From Escherichia coli O127:H6 str. E2348/69 (GTDB taxonomy: Bacteria; Pseudomonadota; Gammaproteobacteria; Enterobacterales; Enterobacteriaceae): a stretch of DNA of 64,000 nt. Where the stretch lies: the NCBI RefSeq assembly GCF_000026545.1, contig NC_011601.1; one strand, written 5' to 3'. The position numbers were made by a program, and so were the translations under genes. The first letter of the stretch is position 1, and the number at the start of each line of letters is the position of its first letter. A model generated the notes under the pieces. It was not told the DNA's origin. It saw only the letters and a list, made by a program, of their open reading frames with translations, and made no database searches. Below, one piece after another: positions 2,809 through 62,645 of this stretch.

Positions 2809-2934
2809 TGCTGAACGTAGCGTAAACGCCTGATCCAGCCAACGGTTCGGATTTTGTAGGTCTGATAAGACGCGGTAGCGTCGCATCAGGCATCTGTTGC
2901 CGGATGCGGCGTAAACGCCTTATCCGTCCTACGA
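2809..2934. repeat. REP/BIME palindromic elements
   Basis: gccggatgcggcgtaaacgccttatccg and related imperfect palindromes typical of E. coli REP units, in the ybiC-ybiJ spacer. Confidence 0.7.
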
Positions 2935-13537: not shown

Positions 13538-14215
<678 letters not shown>

Positions 14216-15228: not shown

Positions 15229-15580
15229 CCTTTCTCCCACAAATATCTAAACCTAAGTAAAGCGTGGAGTGTACTGGATATACCCAATGCTGGTTGAGCA
15301 TTTGTTGAAAAAATTTTCCCCCGTTTTGACTAAAATGCGCCAGGATTGATGGAATCATTAGTCTGGTGATTAGGAATAATCTGGATGAATGACAGGGAAA
15401 ACATGCGTAATACTTACGCAGTTCTCTGAAAAAGTGATTTAAATTTAGATGGATAGCGGTGTATGGAAACGTTCTGTTACATGAAATGGCCCGTTAGACA
15501 TCATAAATCGCGAAGAGTTTCCCATTAATTTTTGATATATTTAAAACTTAGGACTTATTTGAATCACATTTGAGGTGGTT

Positions 15581-16111: not shown

Positions 16112-16818
16112 AAAAAATCCGCCTCTCGGGGCGGATTTTTTTGTGCACAGAAAACCCCCAGCTAGGCTGGGGGTTCCGGAAAGCTTTCAGCTTTGAGCCA
16201 GTTATTAAAACCCCTTTTGATTTGTTAAAACACCTTGCGGTCTGGCAACTGCAAGTGTCAAACAAGAAATCAAAAGGGGGTCCCAATGGGGAACGAAAAG
16301 AGCTTAGCGCACACCCGATGGAACTGTAAATATCACATAGTATTTGCGCCAAAATACCGAAGACAGGTGTTCTACAGAGAGAAGCGTAGAGCAATAGGCT
16401 GTATTTTGAGAAAGCTGTGTGAGTGGAAAAGTGTACGGATTCTGGAAGCTGAATGCTGTGCAGATCATATCCATATGCTTGTGGAGATCCCGCCCAAAAT
16501 GAGCGTATCCGGCTTTATGGGATATCTGAAAGGGAAAAGCAGTCTGATGCTTTACGAGCAGTTTGGTGATTTGAAATTCAAGTACAGGAACAGGGAGTTC
16601 TGGTGCAGAGGGTATTACGTCGATACGGTGGGTAAGAACACGGCGAAGATACAGGATTACATAAAGCACCAGCTTGAAGAGGATAAAATGGGAGAGCAGT
16701 TATCGATTCCCTATCCGGGCAGCCCGTTTACGGGCCGTAAGTAACGAAGTTGGATGCAAATGTCAGATCGTGTGCGCCTGTTAGGGCGCGGCTGGTAAGA
16801 GAGCCTTATAGGCGCATT
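16112..16818 (+). mobile_element. IS200 insertion sequence (IS200/IS605 family); boundaries approximate
   Basis: Y1 transposase gene flanked by the two characteristic structures: an A-tract/GC-hairpin/T-tract at 16112-16146 plus palindrome acccccagc-tag-gctgggggt, and a stem (ccccttttgattt / aaatcaaaagggg) that overlaps the tnpA RBS. A ~707 bp element with tnpA at ~175-633 fits these coordinates. Confidence 0.8.
16286..16744 (+). CDS. tnpA: IS200 transposase TnpA (HuH Y1 transposase)
   Basis: 152 aa from MGNEKSLAHTRWNCKYHIVFAPKYRR...; HxH motif (DHIHML) and near-identity to recalled IS200 TnpA. Confidence 0.9.
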   Translation: MGNEKSLAHTRWNCKYHIVFAPKYRRQVFYREKRRAIGCILRKLCEWKSVRILEAECCADHIHMLVEIPPKMSVSGFMGYLKGKSSLMLYEQFGDLKFKYRNREFWCRGYYVDTVGKNTAKIQDYIKHQLEEDKMGEQLSIPYPGSPFTGRK

Positions 16819-16856
16819 TGAAAAACCTCCGGCTATGCCGGAGGATATTTATTGTT

Positions 16857-18440: not shown

Positions 18441-18711
18441 ATGCCACTATCGTAACAAACGCCATGTGCTTACCCTGGCGTCAAGGGTCAATACCTGCAA
18501 GAGTGCGTGAAGAGGGGAAAGGGGTCCGCATCCGCGAGCCGCAATATACGCAGGGCTGCAAGAAGATAGAGCGAGCTGCTGTTCAGGTCAACTACCGACG
18601 AACAAATCTTTTGCGAAGGGGATTGCAAATCCGACAAAAAGTGGGGTTTTTCAGACCAAAACGCGTTGTGCCTGCATAAAAGCAGGAGTGAAGCGGCGTA
18701 CCGCGACGCCG

Positions 18712-18840
18712 CTATTTATCGGAAGGTTTATCCTGCTGCGGTTTGTTGTTGACCATATCGCACAACATAGAGAGCAGCATTAACCGTACTTTAAAGGGAG
18801 AATGACTAAACACGCGCATACACCTCTTGAACTCATTCAT
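18712..18840 (-). CDS. mntS: small protein MntS (manganese homeostasis)
   Basis: Hand-translated; 42 aa MNEFKRCMRVFSHSPFKVRLMLLSMLCDMVNNKPQQDKPSDK with AGGAGG RBS. Below the ORF-track size cutoff. Confidence 0.85.
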   Translation of the reverse strand: MNEFKRCMRVFSHSPFKVRLMLLSMLCDMVNNKPQQDKPSDK

Positions 18841-18898
18841 AAGACCTCCTGACTTGCTAATCCCATCGATCCTTGAGGGATGATTGCATTACATACAG

Positions 18899-18932
18899 AT
18901 ATAGCACAGGCTATATTATATAGCTATTGCTA
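18899..18932 (-). promoter_or_regulatory. candidate MntR operator in the mntS promoter
   Basis: Perfect inverted repeat ATATAGC-ACAG-GCTATAT followed by TAGC-TATT-GCTA, 60-90 bp upstream of mntS. Confidence 0.5.
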
Positions 18933-19025
18933 AAACGTTAATTTTTTGTACCTTCGCAACTCTGGTTTACAATGTGCGCACGAAATGAGAACGCTATGTA
19001 TGCGTCACCATAATGAGGAAGCACA

Positions 19026-19493
19026 ATGAGTCGTCGCGCAGGTACGCCAACAGCAAAAAAAGTGACGCAGTTAGTGAACGTGGAAGAGCACGTTGAAGGG
19101 TTCCGCCAGGTCAGAGAGGCGCATCGGCGCGAGCTTATTGATGATTACGTTGAGCTGATTTCTGACTTGATCAGGGAAGTGGGGGAAGCTCGTCAGGTAG
19201 ACATGGCTGCTCGTCTGGGGGTTTCGCAACCGACGGTGGCTAAAATGCTTAAGCGACTGGCAACCATGGGGCTGATTGAAATGATCCCCTGGCGTGGCGT
19301 GTTTTTAACGGCAGAAGGAGAGAAGCTGGCGCAGGAAAGCCGCGAGCGACATCAGATAGTCGAAAATTTCTTGTTGGTGTTGGGCGTCAGTCCGGAAATC
19401 GCCCGTCGCGACGCGGAAGGTATGGAGCACCATGTTAGTGAAGAGACGCTGGATGCCTTTCGTTTGTTTACCCAGAAACACGGTGCCAAATGA
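19026..19493 (+). CDS. mntR: manganese-responsive transcriptional regulator (DtxR family)
   Basis: 155 aa; HTH plus metal-binding domain. Confidence 0.95.
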
Positions 19494-52341: not shown

Positions 52342-52445
52342 TAGATAAATTTCAGGCAACAAAAAACCCATTTATGTAAACGGGTTAATGAAAACAATAA
52401 CTTAGAGTAAAAACAATAAGTTGGGTTGGTGGTCAGTGGTGGTTA

Positions 52446-53498
52446 TTACGGGGTAATGCCAACCGCTGCCGCCACTTTGTCGCCACTTGGCAGCGTTGCC
52501 AGAGGATTGAAACGGAGCGCCGTTTCCAGATGATCCGGTGCCAGATGTGCGTAACGCATAGTCATTTTTATATCGTGGTGTCCGAGAATTTTTTGTAAAG
52601 CCAGAATGTTTCCACCCGACATCATGAAGTGCGCCGCAAACGTATGGCGCAGAACGTGTGTGGGTTGACCGCGAGGGAGCACGATAGACGTTTTTTCCAT
52701 CACGGATAAAAATTGAAAATAGCAGTCTGTGAAGAAATTGAACCCATCAAGCGCCATGATCTCTTCGTAAAGCTCTTTACTGATAGGGATGCTTCTGTTT
52801 TTCTTCCCCTTCGCTCTTACAAAGGTAATTCGGTATTTGGTCACCTGTGAGCGGGTAAGATTTACGTCTTCTCGCCAGCGTGCGCCTGTGCTTAAGCATA
52901 TCTTAACTACCAGTGCCAGAATTGGGTCCTGACGTTTGCAATCAGCTAGTAATTCAACAATCTGCTCATGGGTAAGCCATGCCATCTCTTTTTCTGCGAT
53001 GGTGAATTTTCGCATGTTCTCCAGTGGGTTCGGATACGACCATTCGCCCAGGCGGGATAGTTCGCTAAAAACACTACTTAGATAGCTTTGCTCCAGGTTA
53101 ATGGTGACCGGGCTTGCTCCTTTCTTCCATTTCTCACTGAAGTAGATCTCACCTGTCAGGCGTTTATCTCGATAGTGGGCAAACATTTTAGAGGTTAGAT
53201 CAGTTGCAAGGGGATTGCCCAGAGCGTCAACCATCAGCAGCAATTTGTCATAGACATGCTGCCCAGCAGTCAGAGATTTACCATGTAGTTTGAACCATAG
53301 CTCAACCACGTCTTTCAGTGTTCGACGATCCACTGATTCACCCAGCCAGGGCTTTGCTTCGGTTTCTTCCATCGTGTGACGCTCAAAAGCCAGTGCTTCG
53401 CCTTTGGTGGCGAATTGTTTACGCACACGACGCCCACTACGTCCGGCGGGGTAACATTCGCAAAGCCATTTTCCTGTGGTGAGTTTTCGTACTGCCAT
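52446..53498 (-). CDS. int: phage integrase (tyrosine recombinase, P2/186 type)
   Basis: 350 aa; N-terminus MAVRKLTTGKWLCECYPAGRSGRRVRKQFATKGEALAFE and catalytic-domain motifs (LSTGARW, LRHTFAAHFMMSGGNILALQKILGH, MRYAHLAP) match recalled 186 Int. Confidence 0.9.
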   Translation of the reverse strand: MAVRKLTTGKWLCECYPAGRSGRRVRKQFATKGEALAFERHTMEETEAKPWLGESVDRRTLKDVVELWFKLHGKSLTAGQHVYDKLLLMVDALGNPLATDLTSKMFAHYRDKRLTGEIYFSEKWKKGASPVTINLEQSYLSSVFSELSRLGEWSYPNPLENMRKFTIAEKEMAWLTHEQIVELLADCKRQDPILALVVKICLSTGARWREDVNLTRSQVTKYRITFVRAKGKKNRSIPISKELYEEIMALDGFNFFTDCYFQFLSVMEKTSIVLPRGQPTHVLRHTFAAHFMMSGGNILALQKILGHHDIKMTMRYAHLAPDHLETALRFNPLATLPSGDKVAAAVGITP

Positions 53499-53584
53499 AA
53501 TAAAGCCCTCATATCAGAGGGCTAAATTTAACTGTATGTTTGACCAGTGGTCAATGTATGGTTTAGTTTATTCAAACAATGCTT

Positions 53585-55102
53585 TTAATCAAATGATGTG
53601 GCCAGTTCAATTAATTCAATGTAATTATGTAAGGCATAAAAAGATGTATTCAGACCATTCTCTATAAGGGCTCCTTGCAAATACTTTATAGCTGTATCAC
53701 CATCAATAGGGCCTTGTTGAGATATAATCATTAGTGAATTTTGCCCATTGTTTTTTATACTTGATTTAAGCATGTTTATATTATTAATAAAATACAATGC
53801 AACATCTAAGTAATTTATTAATGTTAAATTTATTTTGGGCTCAATCTGTGAGATGAATAATCTACTGCTCGCCGTTCTATAGATATAATTGACACCTATT
53901 CTTTGCTGATTTGTATCAAGATTTAATTCAAGGATGGCTTGAGAAACACCTTTTAAATTGGAGCTTTGCTTTATCGAATCAGTGAAACGTTGTGCTGCAT
54001 TTCTTCGACCAATTAGTCCATCTATAATTTGACGTTCCTTATCATATATAATCATTAGCGAAATTATAAAAATATAATCTACTTTCTTTTTGACTAAATC
54101 AGATTTAAGAATGTCTATTAACCTTTCAGTATTTCGGATTGAGTCTCTTAGATTTAACCCAAATGCTTCAAATACGTTGGAAATATTTATTGAAAAGTCT
54201 TCTAATGTTGCTGTTAGTGGGTGTGTTTTTGATGTGATATTTTCAAAATCGGTACCAATATAATCACCAACAACACCATTAATTAAATCTTTAAGCTCAG
54301 GTTGTTTTAAAGTAAATCTTCTATGAAAAAAACGGCCTAAATAGTCATTTGCGGAAAAATCATTACCGTAAACATTCTTGATTGAATGTTGTAATTGATC
54401 TGTGTCAGTAGCAATAATAAAGACAAAATTTTTAATATCGAATATATGTTTAACAATCTCTAAAAGAGAAATTGCATAATCTGGCCTGCATCTGTCTAAT
54501 TCATCTATAAAGATAAATATAGGACATGAAAAACTATTTTCATATGCCAACCTAGACCATAACGTTAGTTCTTTTTTTAATACCTTAATGCTCTTCAGTT
54601 TTTCCTGGTGTTCCTTCAGCATTATTAATGAGGCTTCTTTGGCTATATCACCTACGTTATCTACTCCTGCATAAGTCTTGATTAGGCCAGATATGATTTC
54701 AGGTAGAACACCTTTTGTAAAGCGTCCGATAGCATGGCCGCTTTGTATCAATCGAGCATCAAGTTTTCCTGCATATGTTTGCAATTGTTGTGACAAAGAA
54801 GAAAAAAGGGTTAAAAATGCATCATCAGAAAAGTCTTGCTTCCAGGCATCAATGTAAACGCATGGGTGTGCATCTTTTATTGAGTTATAAAATCTCTTTA
54901 TGAAAAAACTTTTACCAGCTCCCCATTCTGCATTAAGGTTGATTACCGTGTTGTTCTTTTGCCCCTTTTCCTTAAGATAAAAATATAGATATTCTGCATA
55001 GTGTCTCCGATTAAGTTTGTCTTTGGAAAGAATTTCCTCTTCGTCGTCTAATATAAAGGTAGTTTCTTCATCCCAGTTCCAATTACAATCACCACATTTC
55101 AC
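53585..55102 (-). CDS. KAP-family P-loop NTPase (prophage cargo; candidate anti-phage protein)
   Basis: 505 aa; GTG start with GGAGA RBS; Walker A AEWGAGKS (res 58-65) and Walker B IFIFIDELDRC typical of KAP NTPases; long Asn/Ile/Lys-rich C-terminal region; AT-rich. Confidence 0.7.
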   Translation of the reverse strand: MKCGDCNWNWDEETTFILDDEEEILSKDKLNRRHYAEYLYFYLKEKGQKNNTVINLNAEWGAGKSFFIKRFYNSIKDAHPCVYIDAWKQDFSDDAFLTLFSSLSQQLQTYAGKLDARLIQSGHAIGRFTKGVLPEIISGLIKTYAGVDNVGDIAKEASLIMLKEHQEKLKSIKVLKKELTLWSRLAYENSFSCPIFIFIDELDRCRPDYAISLLEIVKHIFDIKNFVFIIATDTDQLQHSIKNVYGNDFSANDYLGRFFHRRFTLKQPELKDLINGVVGDYIGTDFENITSKTHPLTATLEDFSINISNVFEAFGLNLRDSIRNTERLIDILKSDLVKKKVDYIFIISLMIIYDKERQIIDGLIGRRNAAQRFTDSIKQSSNLKGVSQAILELNLDTNQQRIGVNYIYRTASSRLFISQIEPKINLTLINYLDVALYFINNINMLKSSIKNNGQNSLMIISQQGPIDGDTAIKYLQGALIENGLNTSFYALHNYIELIELATSFD

Positions 55103-55127
55103 TATGAAGTCTCCATGAAAAATTTAC

Positions 55128-56051
55128 TTAATGTAAACAACTTATAATAACTTTTGCAATAAACTCAATGTCTGTAAGCGAACATTCAAAAGAGTGATTT
55201 TGGGATGAAATATAAACTCGTCCTTTAGGTAGTCGAGTTATCATTCTAAATGAATTCTCTCCATCAATATTTACTAGCCACTTACCATCATGTACATCTT
55301 TAAAACCCATTTCACATATTAATTCAGAGTCTTCGGTAGATACTACGAATGCATTTTTTAAATTGGAAGGTAGAAAGCATGGGTCAAATAAATATGAGCC
55401 ATCATTTATTAACTTGCCATTGATTAATACTTTTTTCACTAATGTTAAAGTATCTTTATTTTTTGCGTTTTTCATTTCTCCTGTACCAAATGAAATCCAT
55501 TCAATAGAATGGCCCGTTTCTATTGCACACTGCAAAACCCAGTCTGCAGGAAAAATGTCACGCATGTATCGTGTGGCTAATGTGCTTTTTGAAATACCTA
55601 GGTGATCAGCTAATGCTTGGCGCGTTTTGTAACCGTAAGCCTCGACAATTCGTTCTATTGTTGCCTTACCCCCTCGGTTAAAATTCATGAGTTTTTCATT
55701 ATCGAACTTTATAGTGGGAATGTATACTTCATTGCAAAGGCCATTAACGGCATGTTTTTCAGAATATTGCTCTGATGAAGGAGCAGTATCTGAACCAAGA
55801 ACTAACCATTCAATTGATGCTCCTGTTTCTATGGAACATATAACAACCCAATCTGCAGGAAAGGTATTACGTGCATATCTGTTGGCCATAGTACTTTGGG
55901 AAATACCTAGATGATTACATAATGCCTGTCGTGACTTGAAGCCATAGGCTAGGAGTATACGCTCAATAACTTTTTGCCCTCCACGATTCTGCATAACTAT
56001 TGCTTTCAGATCGTTTTTGATATGGCTAAATTTTAATTTTTGAGTTGACAT
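55128..56051 (-). CDS. CI-like repressor paralog with tandemly duplicated N-terminal DNA-binding domain
   Basis: 307 aa; residues ~20-85 and ~120-190 are two copies of the domain (IERxxxAYGxKxRQALxxHLGISxSTxAxRYxRxxFPAxWVxxCxxETGxSxxWL) found once in the adjacent CI; C-terminal domain is paralogous to the CI C-terminus. Start could alternatively be the Met at residue 20. Confidence 0.75.
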   Translation of the reverse strand: MSTQKLKFSHIKNDLKAIVMQNRGGQKVIERILLAYGFKSRQALCNHLGISQSTMANRYARNTFPADWVVICSIETGASIEWLVLGSDTAPSSEQYSEKHAVNGLCNEVYIPTIKFDNEKLMNFNRGGKATIERIVEAYGYKTRQALADHLGISKSTLATRYMRDIFPADWVLQCAIETGHSIEWISFGTGEMKNAKNKDTLTLVKKVLINGKLINDGSYLFDPCFLPSNLKNAFVVSTEDSELICEMGFKDVHDGKWLVNIDGENSFRMITRLPKGRVYISSQNHSFECSLTDIEFIAKVIISCLH

Positions 56052-56101
56052 ATTTTTTACACCACAACAAATGCTTTACCAAGCATAAAAACATTCCTAT
56101 A

Positions 56102-56677
56102 TTACTCAAAGTACTTAACTGTTATGCTTATAATTTTTCCAATAATTTCGATTTCTTCTTTTTTACATTCGAAAGCCCTATTTCCACCTTCAACTAAGAT
56201 TCTTCCACCAGGTAAACGAGTGATATCGCGGATTGTTACTTCGGCATCAATACTTATTACCCATTTGCCGTCACGAATATCGTTAAACTCTTTATCGCAA
56301 ATAAAAACGGAATTGTTATCGGTGATTACAAACGGATTTTTGAGCGTAGATGGTAGAAATTCTTTATCGAAAATATAAAAACCATCTTCCTGCAAGGTTC
56401 CATCAGATAATACATATTTAACGACTTCCATAGTATTTGTATTACCTGAAGTTTGCTTTGAACCATGTCCGGTCGTGAGCCAGTTAAGCGAGGCGCCCGT
56501 TTCAAGTGCGCACTGGATTACCCATTCAGCAGGGAATGAGTCACGCATATAGCGTGTGGCGAGAGTACTTTTAGAGATTCCTAAGTGATCGCACAACGCC
56601 TGTCGAGTCTTGAAGCCATATGCTTCTACCATGCGCTCTATAGCGCCTCGTCCGCCTTTCTCCAAACTCATGGTCAC
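56102..56677 (-). CDS. cI: prophage immunity repressor CI (186 type)
   Basis: 191 aa; divergent from the apl/cII operon; N-terminal domain resembles recalled 186 CI (...AYGF...CALETGA..W..TG); start may be the ATG at 56671 instead. Confidence 0.75.
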   Translation of the reverse strand: MTMSLEKGGRGAIERMVEAYGFKTRQALCDHLGISKSTLATRYMRDSFPAEWVIQCALETGASLNWLTTGHGSKQTSGNTNTMEVVKYVLSDGTLQEDGFYIFDKEFLPSTLKNPFVITDNNSVFICDKEFNDIRDGKWVISIDAEVTIRDITRLPGGRILVEGGNRAFECKKEEIEIIGKIISITVKYFE

Positions 56678-56796
56678 TCCAAGTGAACTTTTGTCTTGAC
56701 GATTTCATTATGCGATCGCATGTTTATGGTGTTCACAAAATGCAAACGATCCGTATTCGTCCTGATTAATCAACATTAAACGAGGAATGTTGCATC
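56678..56796. promoter_or_regulatory. prophage immunity switch region (early lytic promoter and candidate CI operators)
   Basis: Divergent intergenic region with TTGACG -35-like hexamer (56696-56701), perfect 12-bp palindrome ATGCGATCGCAT (56710-56721), and flanking inverted repeat GTGAAC...GTTCAC (56683-56688 / 56731-56736). Confidence 0.45.
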
Positions 56797-57018
56797 ATGA
56801 AACCTAACATTTCAATCACTCTTACCACGCCTCATGTGACTATTGAACGTTATAGCGAGCTGACAGGGCTATCCATCGATACTATCAATGACATGTTGGC
56901 TGATGGACGTCTTATCCGTCACCGTCTGCGGAAAGATAAAAAACGCGAAAAAGTGATGATCAACATAGCAGCCATGACCGTTGATGCGCTTTCAGAATGC
57001 AATCTAAACCTTAATTAG
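56797..57018 (+). CDS. Apl/Cox-like HTH excisionase-regulator
   Basis: 73 aa; first gene of the rightward operon with GAGGAA RBS; position matches 186 apl / P2 cox. Confidence 0.55.
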
Positions 57019-57050
57019 TTCGATTCTGAAATACATCAGAGGCATTGACC

Positions 57051-57560
57051 ATGTTTGATTACCAAGTTTCCAAACACCCGCATTTTGATGAAGCCTGTAG
57101 AGCTTTTGCACTTCGTCACAATATGGCGAAGCTGGCAGAACGTGCAGGAATGAATGTCCAGACTCTGCGAAACAAACTCAACCCAGATCAACCGCATCAG
57201 CTCAATGCGCCAGAAATCTGGCTGCTTACCGATCTGACTGAAGATTCAACGCTGGTAGATGGCTTTCTGGCACAGATTCACTGCCTGCCATGTGTACCGA
57301 TTAATGAGGTGGCAAAAGAGAAACTGCCGCATTACGTCATGAGTGCAACTGCAGAGATAGGGCGTGTCGCGGCAGGTGCGGTTTCTGGCGATGTAAAAAC
57401 CAGTGCAGGCCGTCGTGATGCGATCAGCAGCATTAACTCTGTTACACGACTGATGGCGCTGGCTGCTGTTTCATTGCAGGCCCGTTTACAGGCTAATCCT
57501 GCGATGGCGAGTGCAGTTGATACCGTGACTGGCCTCGGTGCTTCATTCGGTTTGCTGTGA
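57051..57560 (+). CDS. cII: CII-like lysogeny establishment regulator (186 type)
   Basis: Start trimmed to [45 protein letters not shown]...; closely matches recalled 186 CII over its full length. Confidence 0.85.
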
Positions 57561-57567
57561 GGTGCTT

Positions 57568-57768
57568 ATGCTGACGAAAGAACCATCATTTGCATCGCTG
57601 CTGGTAAAACAAAGTCCGGCAATGCACTACGGTCACGGCTGGATCATGGGTGAGGATGGTAAACGCTGGCATCCGTGCCGTTCACAAGATGAATTGCTGG
57701 CAGAACTATCAACGAAAAAACGGGGGAACCAATGGCTATTGAAGGCGCTGCGGCGACTGTTCCATTAA
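57568..57768 (+). CDS. hypothetical phage early protein
   Basis: 66 aa from MLTKEPSF...; sits where 186 carries fil; no recognisable motif. Confidence 0.4.
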   Translation: MLTKEPSFASLLVKQSPAMHYGHGWIMGEDGKRWHPCRSQDELLAELSTKKRGNQWLLKALRRLFH

Positions 57769-58073
57769 GCCCCGGTGAACGCCTGAATGGACTTAATCAT
57801 ATTGCGGAATTAAGAGCGAAAGTTTTTGGCCTGAATATTGAGTCAGAGCTTGAGCGGTTTATTAAAGATATGCGTGATCCACGGGATATCAATAATGAAC
57901 AAAATAAACGGGCACTGGCTGCCATATTCTTTATGGCAAAAATTCCAGCTGAACGTCATAGCATCAGCATTAATGAGCTGACCACTGACGAAAAGCGGGA
58001 GCTGATTAAAGCAATGAATCATTTTCGTGCAGTGGTGAGCTTATTTCCCAGACGGCTAACCATGCCGAATTAA
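57732..58073 (+). CDS. hypothetical phage early protein
   Basis: 113 aa ORF in the early operon; start uncertain (overlaps previous gene by 37 nt). Confidence 0.4.
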   Translation: MAIEGAAATVPLSPGERLNGLNHIAELRAKVFGLNIESELERFIKDMRDPRDINNEQNKRALAAIFFMAKIPAERHSISINELTTDEKRELIKAMNHFRAVVSLFPRRLTMPN

Positions 58074-58140
58074 CCAACTAATGAAATTCATGGCGTAAAC
58101 CCGCCAGGCATCCCTTTATCTAAATTCAGGAGAATTGATT

Positions 58141-58374
58141 ATGCGTAATATTGAAACCCTCACGACTAAAACCGGACCGGATGATGCAGGGCTTAATATT
58201 TTACTGACAGAGGCTCGTCTGGAAGAACGCCGGGCAAGGGCTGAAGCAATGGCAGCTCGCCTTGATAGCCTGGCGTGTCATATCACATCCCGCCAGCTAA
58301 ACCACGTCGAAGCGGCAGAACTGCTGCGTGTGACTGCTGAAGCAATCCAGAACGAAGCGCAGGAGATCCACTGA
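58141..58374 (+). CDS. hypothetical phage early protein
   Basis: 77 aa from MRNIETLTTK...; CAGGAGAA RBS 6 nt upstream; stop overlaps next start (TGATG). Confidence 0.5.
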   Translation: MRNIETLTTKTGPDDAGLNILLTEARLEERRARAEAMAARLDSLACHITSRQLNHVEAAELLRVTAEAIQNEAQEIH

Positions 58375-58601
58375 TGGCTGATGCAATGGATCTCGTACAG
58401 CAGCGCGTTGAAGAAGAACGCCAGCGTCATATCCGTGCTGCCCGCGCCAAAACGCCGGGCGTATCCCGCGTGCTTTGCATTGAGTGTGAAGCACCAATTC
58501 CGCCAGCACGACGTCGCGCCATTCCGGGTGTGCAGCTTTGCATTACCTGTCAGGAAATCGCAGAGCTGAAAGGCAAACATTACAACGGAGGTGCTGTATG
58601 A
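58374..58601 (+). CDS. phage TraR/DksA-family C4 zinc-finger protein
   Basis: 75 aa; CIECEAPIPPARRRAIPGVQLCITCQ is paralogous to chromosomal YbiI (CEECGAPIPQARREAIPGVRLCIHCQ). Confidence 0.75.
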   Translation: MADAMDLVQQRVEEERQRHIRAARAKTPGVSRVLCIECEAPIPPARRRAIPGVQLCITCQEIAELKGKHYNGGAV

Positions 58602-59455
58602 GCACCATCCTGAAATGGGCGGGTAATAAAACCGCCATTATGCCAGAACTGAAAAAATACCTTCCTGCTGGCCCGCGACTGGTTGAACCTTTCGCGGGTT
58701 CTTGTGCTGTGATGATAGAGACGGATTACCCCAGCTATCTTGTTGCGGATATTAATCCTGATTTAATCAACCTCTATAAAAAGGTTGCTGCTGATTGCGA
58801 GGCGTTTATATCTCGTGCCAGAGCTTTATTTGAGGAAGCAAACAGGGAGGTGGCTTATTACAACATAAGGCAGGAGTTTAATTACTCCACTGAAATTACT
58901 GATTTCATGAAAGCGGTATATTTCCTGTATCTCAATCGTCATGGTTACCGTGGGTTATGTCGCTATAACAAGAGCGGGCATTTCAACATTCCCTACGGGA
59001 ATTATAAAAATCCGTATTTCCCTGAAAAAGAAATTCGCAAATTTGCAGAAAAAGCCCAGCGAGCAACGTTTATCTGCGCCAGCTTTGATGAAACGCTGGC
59101 GATGTTGAAGGCGGGGGATGTGGTGTATTGCGATCCGCCTTATGACGGTACGTTTTCCGGCTATCACACTGATGGCTTCACTGAGGATGACCAGTATCAC
59201 CTGGCATCCGTTCTTGAACATCGATCATCTGAAGGTCATCCGGTCATTGTTTCTAACAGTGACACATCCCTGATTCGTTCGCTGTATCGCAATTTCACTC
59301 ACCACTACATCAAGGCAAAACGCAGCATCGGCGTGTCGGCTGGCGAGAGTAAATCTGCAACAGAAATCATTGCTGTTTCCGGGGCGCGCTGCTGGGTGGG
59401 ATTTGATCCTTCGCGTGGCGTGGATAGTTCTGCTGTGTACGAGGTGCGTGTATGA
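58598..59455 (+). CDS. dam: phage DNA adenine methyltransferase (Dam-like)
   Basis: 285 aa from [12 protein letters not shown]... with GGAGG RBS; FAGSCAV SAM-binding motif and DPPY catalytic motif. Confidence 0.85.
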
Positions 59456-61866
59456 GTCATGATGATATGAGCAACTCTAGCGGCTTTAACGAGGCCGCTG
59501 CAGCATTTTCATGGAACGGCCCGAAAAAGGCCATTAACCCTTATCTGGATCCGGCGGAAGTTGCGCCGGAGTCTGCACTTTCAAACATGATCACTCTGTA
59601 CGCTGCCGATAACGAGCAGGAACAGCTGCGCCGCGATGCACTGAGTGAGCAGGTCTGGGAGCGTTATTTCTTTAATGAATCCCGTGATCCTGTCCAGCGC
59701 GAAATGGAGCAGGATAATCTCATTAGTCGGGCAAAGCTGGCGCATGATCAGCAGCGTTTTAACCCGGACATGGTCATTCTGGCGGACGTCAGCGCCCAGC
59801 CCACCCACATCAGCAAGCCGCTGATGCAACGTATCGAATACTTCAGCAGCCTGGGCAGGCCAAAGGCTTATTCCCGCTATTTGCGTGAGACGATTAAGTC
59901 ATGTCTGGAGCGACTGGAGTATGTACGCGACAGTCAGCTATCCGCTTCTTTCCGTTTTATGGCAAGCCATCAAGGGCTTGAGGGCCTGCTGATCCTGCCT
60001 GAAATGAGTCAGGATCAGGTAAAACGCCTGTCCACCTTGGTAGCAGCGCATATGAGCATGTGTCTTGAGGCCGCTTGTGGTGATTTGTATGCCTCCGATG
60101 ACGTTAAGCCAGAAGAAATCCGCAAGACATGGGAAAAGGTGGCAGCGGAAACCCTGCGTCTGGATGTTATCCCGCCTGCGTTTGAGAAACTCCGTCGGAA
60201 AAGAAACCGCCGCAAACCCGTGCCCTATGAACTCATACCGGGTTCGCTGGCACGTATGCTTTGCGCCGACTGGTGGTATCGAAAATTGTGGAAGATACGT
60301 TGCGAATGGCGGGAAGAGCAGTTGCGTGCTGTCTGCCTGGTCAGCAAAAAAGCATCTCCCTATGTCAGCTATGAAGCAGTGACGCATAAACGTGAGCAGC
60401 GCCGCAAGTCGCTGGAGTTTTTCCGTTCTCATGAACTGGTGAACGAAGACGGCGACACGCTGGATATGGAAGACGTGGTAAACGCCAGCAGCAGCAACCC
60501 GGCGCACCGCCGCAATGAGATGATGGCCTGTGTTAAAGGTCTGGAGCTTATCGCGGAAATGCGTGGTGACTGCGCCGTTTTCTACACCATTACCTGTCCG
60601 TCACGTTTCCATTCTACGCTCAATAACGGCAGACCAAACCCAACCTGGACAAATGCGACGGTAAGACAAAGCAGCGATTATCTGGTCGGCATGTTTGCTG
60701 CATTTCGTAAGGCTATGCACAAAGCCGGGTTGCGCTGGTATGGCGTGCGGGTGGCTGAGCCGCACCATGACGGTACTGTGCACTGGCATCTCATGTGTTT
60801 CATGCGCAAAAAAGACCGCCGCGCCATTACTGCATTGTTGCGTAAGTTTGCCATCCGTGAAGACCGCGAGGAACTGGGCAATAACACGGGTCCACGCTTT
60901 AAGTCTGAGCTGATAAACCCGCGCAAAGGAACGCCGACAAGCTACATCGCGAAATACATCAGTAAGAACATTGACGGACGTGGTCTGGCTGGCGAGATCA
61001 GCAAGGAAACGGGTAAATCCCTGCGTGATAACGCCGAATACGTTAATGCCTGGGCGTCTCTGCATCGTGTTCAGCAGTTCCGCTTCTTTGGTATTCCGGG
61101 GCGTCAGGCGTACCGTGAACTTCGCTTGCTGGCTGGTCAGGCGGCAAGGCAACAGGGTGACAAAAAAGCAGGTGCGCCGGTACTGGATGACCCGCGCCTT
61201 GATGCCATCCTGGCTGCCGCTGATGCTGGCTGTTTTGCCACCTACATCATGAAGCAGGGCGGCGTACTGGTTCCCCGCAAATATCACCTTATCAGAACAG
61301 CTTATGAAATTAACGAAGAGCCGACCGCTTATGGCGATCACGGTATTCGTATTTATGGCATCTGGTCACCCATTGTACAGGGCAAGATCTGCACTCATGC
61401 AATGAAATGGAAAATGGTTCGTAAGGTCGTTGACGTTCAGGAGGCGGCAGCCGACCAGGGCGCTTGCGCCCCTTGGACTCGTGGCAATAACTGTCCCCTT
61501 GCTGAAAATTTGAACCGACAGGAGAAAGATAAATCAGCTGATGGGGACCCCAGAACGGACATTACCCGCATGGATGACAAGGAGTTACACGATTACCTGC
61601 ACAGTATGAACAAAAAGGAGCGCCGGGAACTGGCTGCAAGGTTACGTCTGGTGAAACCGAAACGGCGTAGAGACTACAAACAGCGAATTACAGACCATCA
61701 ACGACAGCAGCTCGTCTATGAACTGAAATCCAGAGGATTTGATGGCAGCGAGAAAGAGGTCGATTTACTCCTTCGCGGCGGCAGTATTCCGTCAGGAGCT
61801 GGCCTGCGTATCTTCTATCGGAACCAGCGTTTGCAGGAAGATGATAAGTGGCGGAACCTGTATTAA
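59452..61866 (+). CDS. A: phage replication initiation protein A (HuH rolling-circle endonuclease)
   Basis: 804 aa; HuH motif (VHWHLMCF) followed later by tyrosine-containing region ([10 protein letters not shown]); positional equivalent of P2/186 gene A. Confidence 0.8.
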
Positions 61867-61959
61867 TTACGCTGGTTAACAATTCGTGCTCTTAATAATA
61901 CCAGGCATATCAGGCTGATAAGCGTAAAAAAAACGTTTTACATCAGTAAGATTATTATA

Positions 61960-61979
61960 TACTGTAAATATAAACAGTG
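61960..61979 (+). promoter_or_regulatory. LexA (SOS) box
   Basis: TACTGTAAATATAAACAGTG fits CTGT-N8-ACAG, 40 bp upstream of the 62021 ORF. Confidence 0.75.
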
Positions 61980-62020
61980 GTTATACATACAGCATTGTGT
62001 GTGGTGTCATAGGAGGAAAG

Positions 62021-62209
62021 ATGCAGGACTATTTTTTGGAGTCTTTGAAGCTCCAGCGCATTGATTTTTTTCTTAAGCTTGTAGCGGCTAGTGAGTGTAG
62101 TGATGAAGAGAAGGGGCTGGCTCTGCAGTGGGTTTCTGAATTGACTGATGAACTTATGGCAAAAATCAGAAGCCACGAATACAACCGCTCAATGGATGTC
62201 ATCAGCTGA
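62021..62209 (+). CDS. SOS-controlled small protein (positional equivalent of the 186 Tum antirepressor; function unverified)
   Basis: 62 aa from MQDYFLESLK... with AGGAGG RBS; directly downstream of the LexA box. Confidence 0.5.
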   Translation: MQDYFLESLKLQRIDFFLKLVAASECSDEEKGLALQWVSELTDELMAKIRSHEYNRSMDVIS

Positions 62210-62219
62210 GGTGACTTTT

Positions 62220-62453
62220 ATGCGCATTGAAATAATGATCGATAAAGAGCAGAAGATTAGCCAGTCTACCCTGGACGCCCTTGAATCCGAGCTTTACCGC
62301 AATCTGCGCCCCCTGTATCCCAAAACGGTAATTCGCATTCGCAAAGGTAGCTCTAACGGTGTGGAACTAACCGGACTGCAACTGGATGAAGAAAGAAAAC
62401 AAGTGATGAAAATTATGCAGAAGGTGTGGGAGGACGACAGCTGGCTGCATTAA
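62220..62453 (+). CDS. DinI-family protein
   Basis: 77 aa MRIEIMIDKEQ...IMQKVWEDDSWLH resembles DinI; GAGGTG RBS. Confidence 0.75.
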   Translation: MRIEIMIDKEQKISQSTLDALESELYRNLRPLYPKTVIRIRKGSSNGVELTGLQLDEERKQVMKIMQKVWEDDSWLH

Positions 62454-62645
62454 GAAACGTTGCCCCCAGGAGGATTCATTCTGATGGGGGCTAGTTTGGG
62501 CAATGAGTGAAATAAGGCGTAAGGTGGGCGGTTATTTTGATAAGTGATCGTCCGCTTTGTGTCAGAAGCAGAAGTGGGAGTGTCTGAGACTCTCTAAAAG
62601 TTGATGATTCACTTACAAAACCATTTTCCTGATGAATGCTTACAC

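Follow-up and report, generated by a model that had tools for sequence, protein, structure and literature searches.

Control of mntS by MntR and the action of its product on MntP have reportedly been studied since 2011, when Waters et al. are said to have mapped MntR sites and the mntS start site; the MntR box, with its core ATAGC-N4-GCTAT, was reportedly defined by Patzer and Hantke in 2001. According to published data, Mn-bound MntR represses mntS (Martin et al. 2015, PMC4361602), and manganese lowers a PmntS-egfp reporter only in the presence of mntR, the response being restored on complementation (PMC9806134). RegulonDB curates MntR as a repressor of mntS (table in PMC4207228), and published work uses mntS qPCR as a calibrated measure of MntR occupancy. 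The K-12 protein binds and inhibits MntP and confers Mn sensitivity when overexpressed, and MntS is recognisable only in closely related enterobacteria (PMC4361602; bioRxiv 10.1101/2023.06.02.543501). A text search of the literature did not find the operator sequences themselves in print, and here the promoters of mntH, mntP and dps served to derive the core anew.

Here we describe the corresponding locus in a 64-kb stretch of DNA from Escherichia coli O127:H6 E2348/69 (hereafter the window). It almost certainly represents E. coli mntS (rybA), comprising an MntR-repressed promoter and an mRNA for the 42-aa protein MntS, the inhibitor of MntP.

Coding sequence and conservation of mntS

The coding features are as follows:
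18712..18840, minus strand: mntS coding sequence, 42 aa plus a TAG stop codon (ORF listing, ATG start)
18850..18845, minus strand: Shine-Dalgarno sequence AGGAGG, 4 nt upstream of the mntS ATG

The initial annotation had placed an intact 42-aa MntS ORF with a strong ribosome-binding site on the minus strand, and both elements were recovered. The ORF translates to MNEFKRCMRVFSHSPFKVRLMLLSMLCDMVNNKPQQDKPSDK, identical to K-12 MntS, and the protein matches the MntS equivalog model of NCBIfam, NF033226 (small_MntS), over residues 1-39 with 96 bits against a cut-off of 36 bits (E=6e-28); the Pfam search showed that no Pfam model exists for it. On the minus strand the sequence with AGGAGG reads cAGGAGGTcttATG, and the stretch from 18940 to 18838 reads ...TTAACGTTTTAGCAATAGCTATATAATATAGCCTGTGCTATATCTGTATGTAATGC...CAGGAGGTCTTATG. 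GGAG lies at most 16 nt from the mntS start in all 78 related sequences, and the Shine-Dalgarno sequence (CCTCCT on the plus strand) forms one of the blocks conserved at 90% or more among 73 distinct intergenic sequences.

The gene had also been called missed, which holds for the first-stage ORF track, where the 42-aa mntS is unlisted because of a 60-aa length threshold, and does not hold for RefSeq, which annotates mntS at exactly these coordinates in the source genome (818712..818840 in record NZ_LT827011.1, whose coordinates equal those of the window plus 800,000 wherever checked). The accompanying remark that genes below 60 aa are invisible is accurate within its scope, the track. Another annotated gene falls under the same threshold:
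15463-15528, plus strand: yliM, 21 aa, upstream of ompX
A real 42-aa gene and its operators can be recognised by reading raw sequence, and a 60-aa ORF threshold hides genuine genes.

An MntR-anchored scan with one genome per species yielded 80 Enterobacteriaceae loci, with genera including Escherichia, Citrobacter, Salmonella, Enterobacter, Klebsiella, Raoultella, Kluyvera, Kosakonia, Leclercia and Franconibacter. In 77 of the 80 mntR loci an MntS-like ORF stands in divergent orientation to mntR, usually at a distance of 180-191 bp; the three exceptions comprise two loci without upstream DNA and one that is broken inside the operator named box B below. The orthologues have 41-44 codons and start with ATG in 78/78 cases. 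Among 67 distinct MntS proteins, M1 N2 E3, R6 C7, V10 F11, H13 S14 P15 F16 (HSPF), V18 R19 L20 and L22 are invariant, and the window protein carries every one of these residues, HSPF included. Codon differences of a single nucleotide among 75 distinct orthologous coding sequences are strongly biased in the mntS frame (18,850 synonymous to 6,621 nonsynonymous), against 4,733:22,609 and 425:26,587 in the two control frames, and variable positions are found at 27 of 30 third codon positions and 8 of 30 second positions. The synonymous bias is confined to the annotated frame, which indicates that mntS is a translated reading frame under clear purifying selection.

Within the species, a 431-bp query spanning mntS found matches in 5,421 of the 5,426 complete E. 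coli genomes, ATCC 11775 among them at 100%, and all 15 listed records annotate mntS there. The target gene mntP was found in 5,422 of the 5,426 genomes. In around 30 of the 5,421 matching genomes, no single place accounts for as much as 80% of the query.

Operator boxes, promoter and transcript of mntS

The regulatory features upstream of mntS, and the site at dps used for comparison, are as follows:
18899..18916: MntR box B, perfect 7+7 inverted repeat ATATAGC-CTGT-GCTATAT, spanning -9 to +9, counted from the annotated 5' end of RybA
18918..18935: MntR box A, imperfect palindrome TTTTAGC-AATA-GCTATAT, at -28 to -11 relative to the RybA 5' end
18920..18915 and 18918..18913, minus strand: TATAAT and the overlapping TAATAT, predicted -10 region of the mntS/rybA promoter
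18941..18936, minus strand: TTAACG, candidate -35 element, 17 bp from TAATAT and 15 bp from TATAAT
18568..18907, minus strand: rybA/mntS transcript, 340 nt, transferred by alignment from the K-12 annotation
13538..14041, minus strand: dps, annotated
14091..14104 (18-mer 14089-14106): core site with the plus-strand sequence GTATAGCACCAGCTATGT, lying 50-63 bp before the dps start codon

The perfect ATATAGC-N4-GCTATAT palindrome noted in the initial annotation is box B, whose 18-mer occurs exactly once in the 64 kb, with 0.00 occurrences expected (none in 100 dinucleotide-preserving shuffles). The second half-site pair of that reading corresponds to box A, although the interval given there, 18712-18932, clips the outer 3 nt of the box and leaves the candidate -35 (18936..18941) outside. 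Box A differs from the box B 18-mer at two positions and from the 14-bp core at one, and taken alone it is within chance, with four matches at up to three mismatches in the 64-kb window against 2.0 expected. The two boxes lie 19 bp apart centre-to-centre, and this spacing and both boxes are kept in 76 of 78 sequences, where presence was counted as a core within one mismatch at the fixed 19-bp spacing. Across Enterobacteriaceae the boxes are the most conserved part of the mntS-mntR intergenic region, with a mean column conservation of 0.989 for box B and 0.887 for box A against about 0.79-0.80 for the flanks (73 distinct sequences). A disrupted ORF or non-conserved palindromes had been named as evidence to the contrary; instead, the ORF is intact in 77 loci and the boxes persist as counted above.

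The exact core ATAGC-N4-GCTAT occurs twice in the window against 0.07 expected, in box B and upstream of dps. In K-12, one exact site stands just upstream of mntH, and two cores stand 365-420 bp upstream of the mntP ATG, one exact and one with a TTAGC half-site, a variant common to box A and this mntP site; the chance expectation for the core is 0.06-0.09 per 3.5-kb locus (K-12 mntH and mntP). The dps site overlaps a TATACT -10-like hexamer at 14093..14088, and since dps has been published as MntR-repressed (PMC4207228), the core at 14091-14104 is probably its operator. Shared core and conservation together support the prediction that boxes A and B are MntR operators, in keeping with the MntR repression suggested initially and with published repression by Mn-MntR (PMC4361602, PMC9806134, PMC4207228).

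Two deviating genomes deserve mention. In E. coli strain mip270_22 (NZ_CM132655.1) the match to the 431-bp query is split from query position 107 (about window position 18924) into two places in the record, which implies an interruption inside box A. In Citrobacter sp. R56, box A and half of box B are still present, followed by unrelated AT-rich DNA; homology stopping in the middle of box B suggests that mntS was lost or displaced at that site.

The transcript start was located through the K-12 ncRNA rybA (852725..853064), whose 99% identical, collinear alignment puts the RybA 5' end at window position 18907, a position that rests on the annotation of that end. The TATAAT/TAATAT hexamers lie 6-8 nt upstream of it, and the boxes, spanning -28 to +9, flank or overlap TATAAT. 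The consensus promoter scan did not call the mntS/rybA promoter, because of its weak -35; the candidate -35 itself (CGTTAA on the plus strand) is one of the blocks conserved at 90% or more. The hexamers TATATC and TGTAAT downstream of box B were judged by eye to be weaker -10 candidates than TATAAT/TAATAT, because they are mismatched at the most conserved hexamer positions. In Leclercia adecarboxylata, a GC-rich insertion of about 250 bp parts the TTAACG block from the boxes, which stay with mntS, suggesting that the candidate -35 may be non-essential. Fur was considered as a regulator of mntS and set aside, the Fur regulon paper containing no evidence for such control.

In the proposed scheme, a sigma-70 promoter with its -10 at 18913-18920 would give rise, from near 18907, to an mRNA of about 205-400 nt whose sole conserved ORF is the 42-aa MntS. 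A pair of MntR dimers would mask the promoter from about -28 to +9, taking in the spacer, the -10 element and the start site. With sufficient cytoplasmic Mn(II), Mn-loaded MntR would occupy both operators and block RNA polymerase; under Mn scarcity, MntR would leave the DNA and MntS would be made, which would then bind and inhibit the MntP exporter so that the cell retains manganese. The exact -10 and -35 elements and the repression by steric occlusion at mntS are, in this scheme, predictions from sequence.

Downstream, folding revealed a hairpin at the end of the coding sequence:
18713..18692, minus strand: 8-bp GC-rich hairpin, AGCGGCGU-loop-ACGCCGCU, beginning in the stop codon
This hairpin lacks a trailing U-run, and the terminator scan called no intrinsic terminator; the structure is possibly a 3'-end or stability element. 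A hairpin without a U-run agrees with the heterogeneous 3' ends reported for RybA, since the Northern data cited in PMC4361602 describe seven species of 205 to about 400 nt, which share their 5' end and all contain the ORF.

The annotation in K-12 of a 340-nt ncRNA, rybA, around the ORF raises the question of whether the locus mainly specifies a regulatory RNA, with the ORF secondary or incidental, or, in a weaker form, a dual-function RNA with other genes among its targets. PMC11878033 cites 2012 work reporting that aroF and aroL are repressed in a TyrR-dependent manner under peroxide stress, and Martin et al. leave room for an sRNA role in other contexts (PMC4361602). However, the reading frame is clearly under purifying selection, and this coding signature contradicts the RNA-only form, while the UTRs are less conserved and lack conserved structure: Alifold on 70 distinct 5' UTRs returned only four weak pairs, and no Rfam family reached its threshold for RybA, the best match, PinT, being at chance level (18.5 bits against 60, E=0.3). 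In addition, the Mn toxicity caused by mntS overexpression, studied with mutant mntS alleles, acts through the protein and not through untranslated RNA or Hfq, which is not needed (PMC4361602). We consider this rival reading highly improbable, although an additional role at the RNA level, such as the aroF and aroL effect, is conceivable; RybA RNA exists, as annotation and Northern data indicate, but it behaves as an mRNA. It is hardly credible, too, that the palindromes arose by chance in an AT-rich promoter or serve a regulator other than MntR. The region is indeed AT-rich and box A by itself is statistically ordinary, but the perfect 18-mer appeared in none of the 100 shuffles, the other published MntR targets mntH, mntP and dps carry the identical core in their promoters, and the boxes hold the most conserved intergenic columns of the 73 distinct sequences. 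Moreover, the Mn response of the PmntS reporter is lost in an mntR mutant and regained on complementation (PMC9806134). No observation contradicts MntR-controlled expression of an mRNA for MntS, which stays the preferred reading.

The divergent mntR gene and the extension of box B

On the other side of the boxes lie the following features:
19026..19493, plus strand: mntR, DtxR-family Mn sensor, 155 codons (ORF listing, annotated)
19015-19021, plus strand: Shine-Dalgarno sequence of mntR
18888..18898: invariant 11-bp extension of box B, CTGTATGTAAT on the minus strand and ATTACATACAG on the plus strand
18888..18917, plus strand: promoter candidate ATTACA-18-TATATT from the consensus scan, 9/12 matches, overlapping both boxes
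18985-19014, plus strand: other promoter candidate from the consensus scan, ATGAGA-18-CATAAT

The window MntR matches the NCBIfam MntR equivalog NF008273 with 269 bits against a cut-off of 153 bits, as well as the Pfam domains Fe_dep_repress and Fe_dep_repr_C. Around box B, the run conserved at 90% or more spans 18888..18914 (73 distinct sequences) and so takes in 11 invariant bp beside the box that the mntS-repression model leaves unaccounted for. A conserved RNA structure in the 5' UTR as the cause of this invariant block was rejected on the Alifold result. The -35-like hexamer of the plus-strand candidate falls on the extension, and it is conceivable that the same two boxes, in addition to controlling mntS, also control a divergent mntR promoter (-35 ATTACA at 18888-18893, -10 TATATT at 18912-18917), by which MntR would repress its own gene. 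Such autorepression would account for the 11 conserved bp past box B; the candidate scores 9/12 in the promoter scan with both hexamers assigned to the invariant 18888-18914 block, and its rival at 18985-19014 would start RNA downstream of the mntR Shine-Dalgarno sequence. The proposal rests on a consensus match, however, and the table in PMC10003395 gives Dps as the only MntR-controlled regulator, while self-regulators there list themselves; Mn-dependent mntR expression was not found reported in the literature searched, and the conserved block might instead be early transcribed mntS sequence or reflect extended MntR contacts. We therefore regard mntR autorepression through these boxes as rather unlikely. 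The same low probability is given to the broader suggestion that the 11 bp and the invariant TATATT at the box junction mark a divergent mntR promoter or, alternatively, the site of a second regulator, for example for the peroxide induction of RybA. If autorepression were true, a single operator pair would allow MntR to repress both mntS and its own gene, forming an autoregulatory loop of which the literature searched gave no record.

Genomic surroundings and comparison with known systems

Several features elsewhere in the window set the surroundings of the locus:
2859-2929, minus strand: Rfam naRNA4 (nucleoid-associated noncoding RNA 4, CssrE), 72.7 bits against a gathering score of 59.5
about 16145-16842: IS200C copy between the convergent genes ompX and opgE
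16286..16744, plus strand: tnpA of IS200C, Y1_Tnp, 129 bits
about 52372-64000: P2-like prophage beside rcdA, absent from ATCC 11775
about 53585-55102 (record 853585..855102): KAP-family P-loop NTPase gene between the prophage integrase and CI genes

Within IS200C, just upstream of tnpA, an Rfam match to STnc490 was found at 16153-16276; STnc490 is presumably linked with IS200. Neither ATCC 11775 nor K-12 has the insertion, which was found at this site in only 78 of 5,426 complete E. coli genomes; by BLAST, the window is 98-99% identical to ATCC 11775 and carries an insertion of about 700 bp. The P2-like prophage encodes an integrase, two CI-type repressors, CII, Fil, a Dam methylase and a replication endonuclease, and the placement of the KAP NTPase gene is typical for an accessory or defence gene.

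The mntS gene and its MntR control are already known and are part of standard annotation, and the analysis adds little to their biology; it does provide a cross-species description of the operator pair, with its 19-bp spacing, near-invariant box B and conserved 11-bp extension. Compared with K-12 mntS (b4705) and rybA (b4416), the locus encodes the same protein and has a promoter, both boxes and a ribosome-binding site that agree base for base, in the shared gene order opgE-mntS-mntR-ybiR. The comparison with annotated K-12 mntS, which had been put forward as a check, gave 99% identity over about 500 bp, the ORF differing by a single synonymous change (CAG vs CAA), the 5' UTR by one base and the 3' region by a few. 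Unlike K-12, E2348/69 has IS200C inserted between ompX and opgE, at a distance of about 1.9 kb, which leaves the mntS locus untouched.

The operators at mntH, mntP and dps have in common with those of mntS the inverted-repeat core ATAGC-N4-GCTAT. The two sites of mntS lie side by side, 19 bp centre-to-centre, over the core promoter, whereas those of mntP are 40 bp apart and 365-420 bp upstream of the ATG, where the published role of MntR is activation. According to PMC11275975 and PMC4361602, both the Bacillus subtilis and the enterobacterial MntR repress uptake-side genes and activate exporters; the window MntR matches the B. subtilis-type MntR equivalog only partially, with 87 bits, below its cut-off of 138 bits, and exceeds the cut-off of the enterobacterial one. 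On the protein side, the signal peptides of the MntR-linked SitA subclade, the proposed ancestor of MntS, resemble MntS in their length of 40-45 aa, their PF motif and their linkage to mntR (Wright et al., bioRxiv 10.1101/2023.06.02.543501), whereas MntS, unlike them, stands alone, without an AXA cleavage motif or a periplasmic binding domain (bioRxiv 10.1101/2023.06.02.543501).
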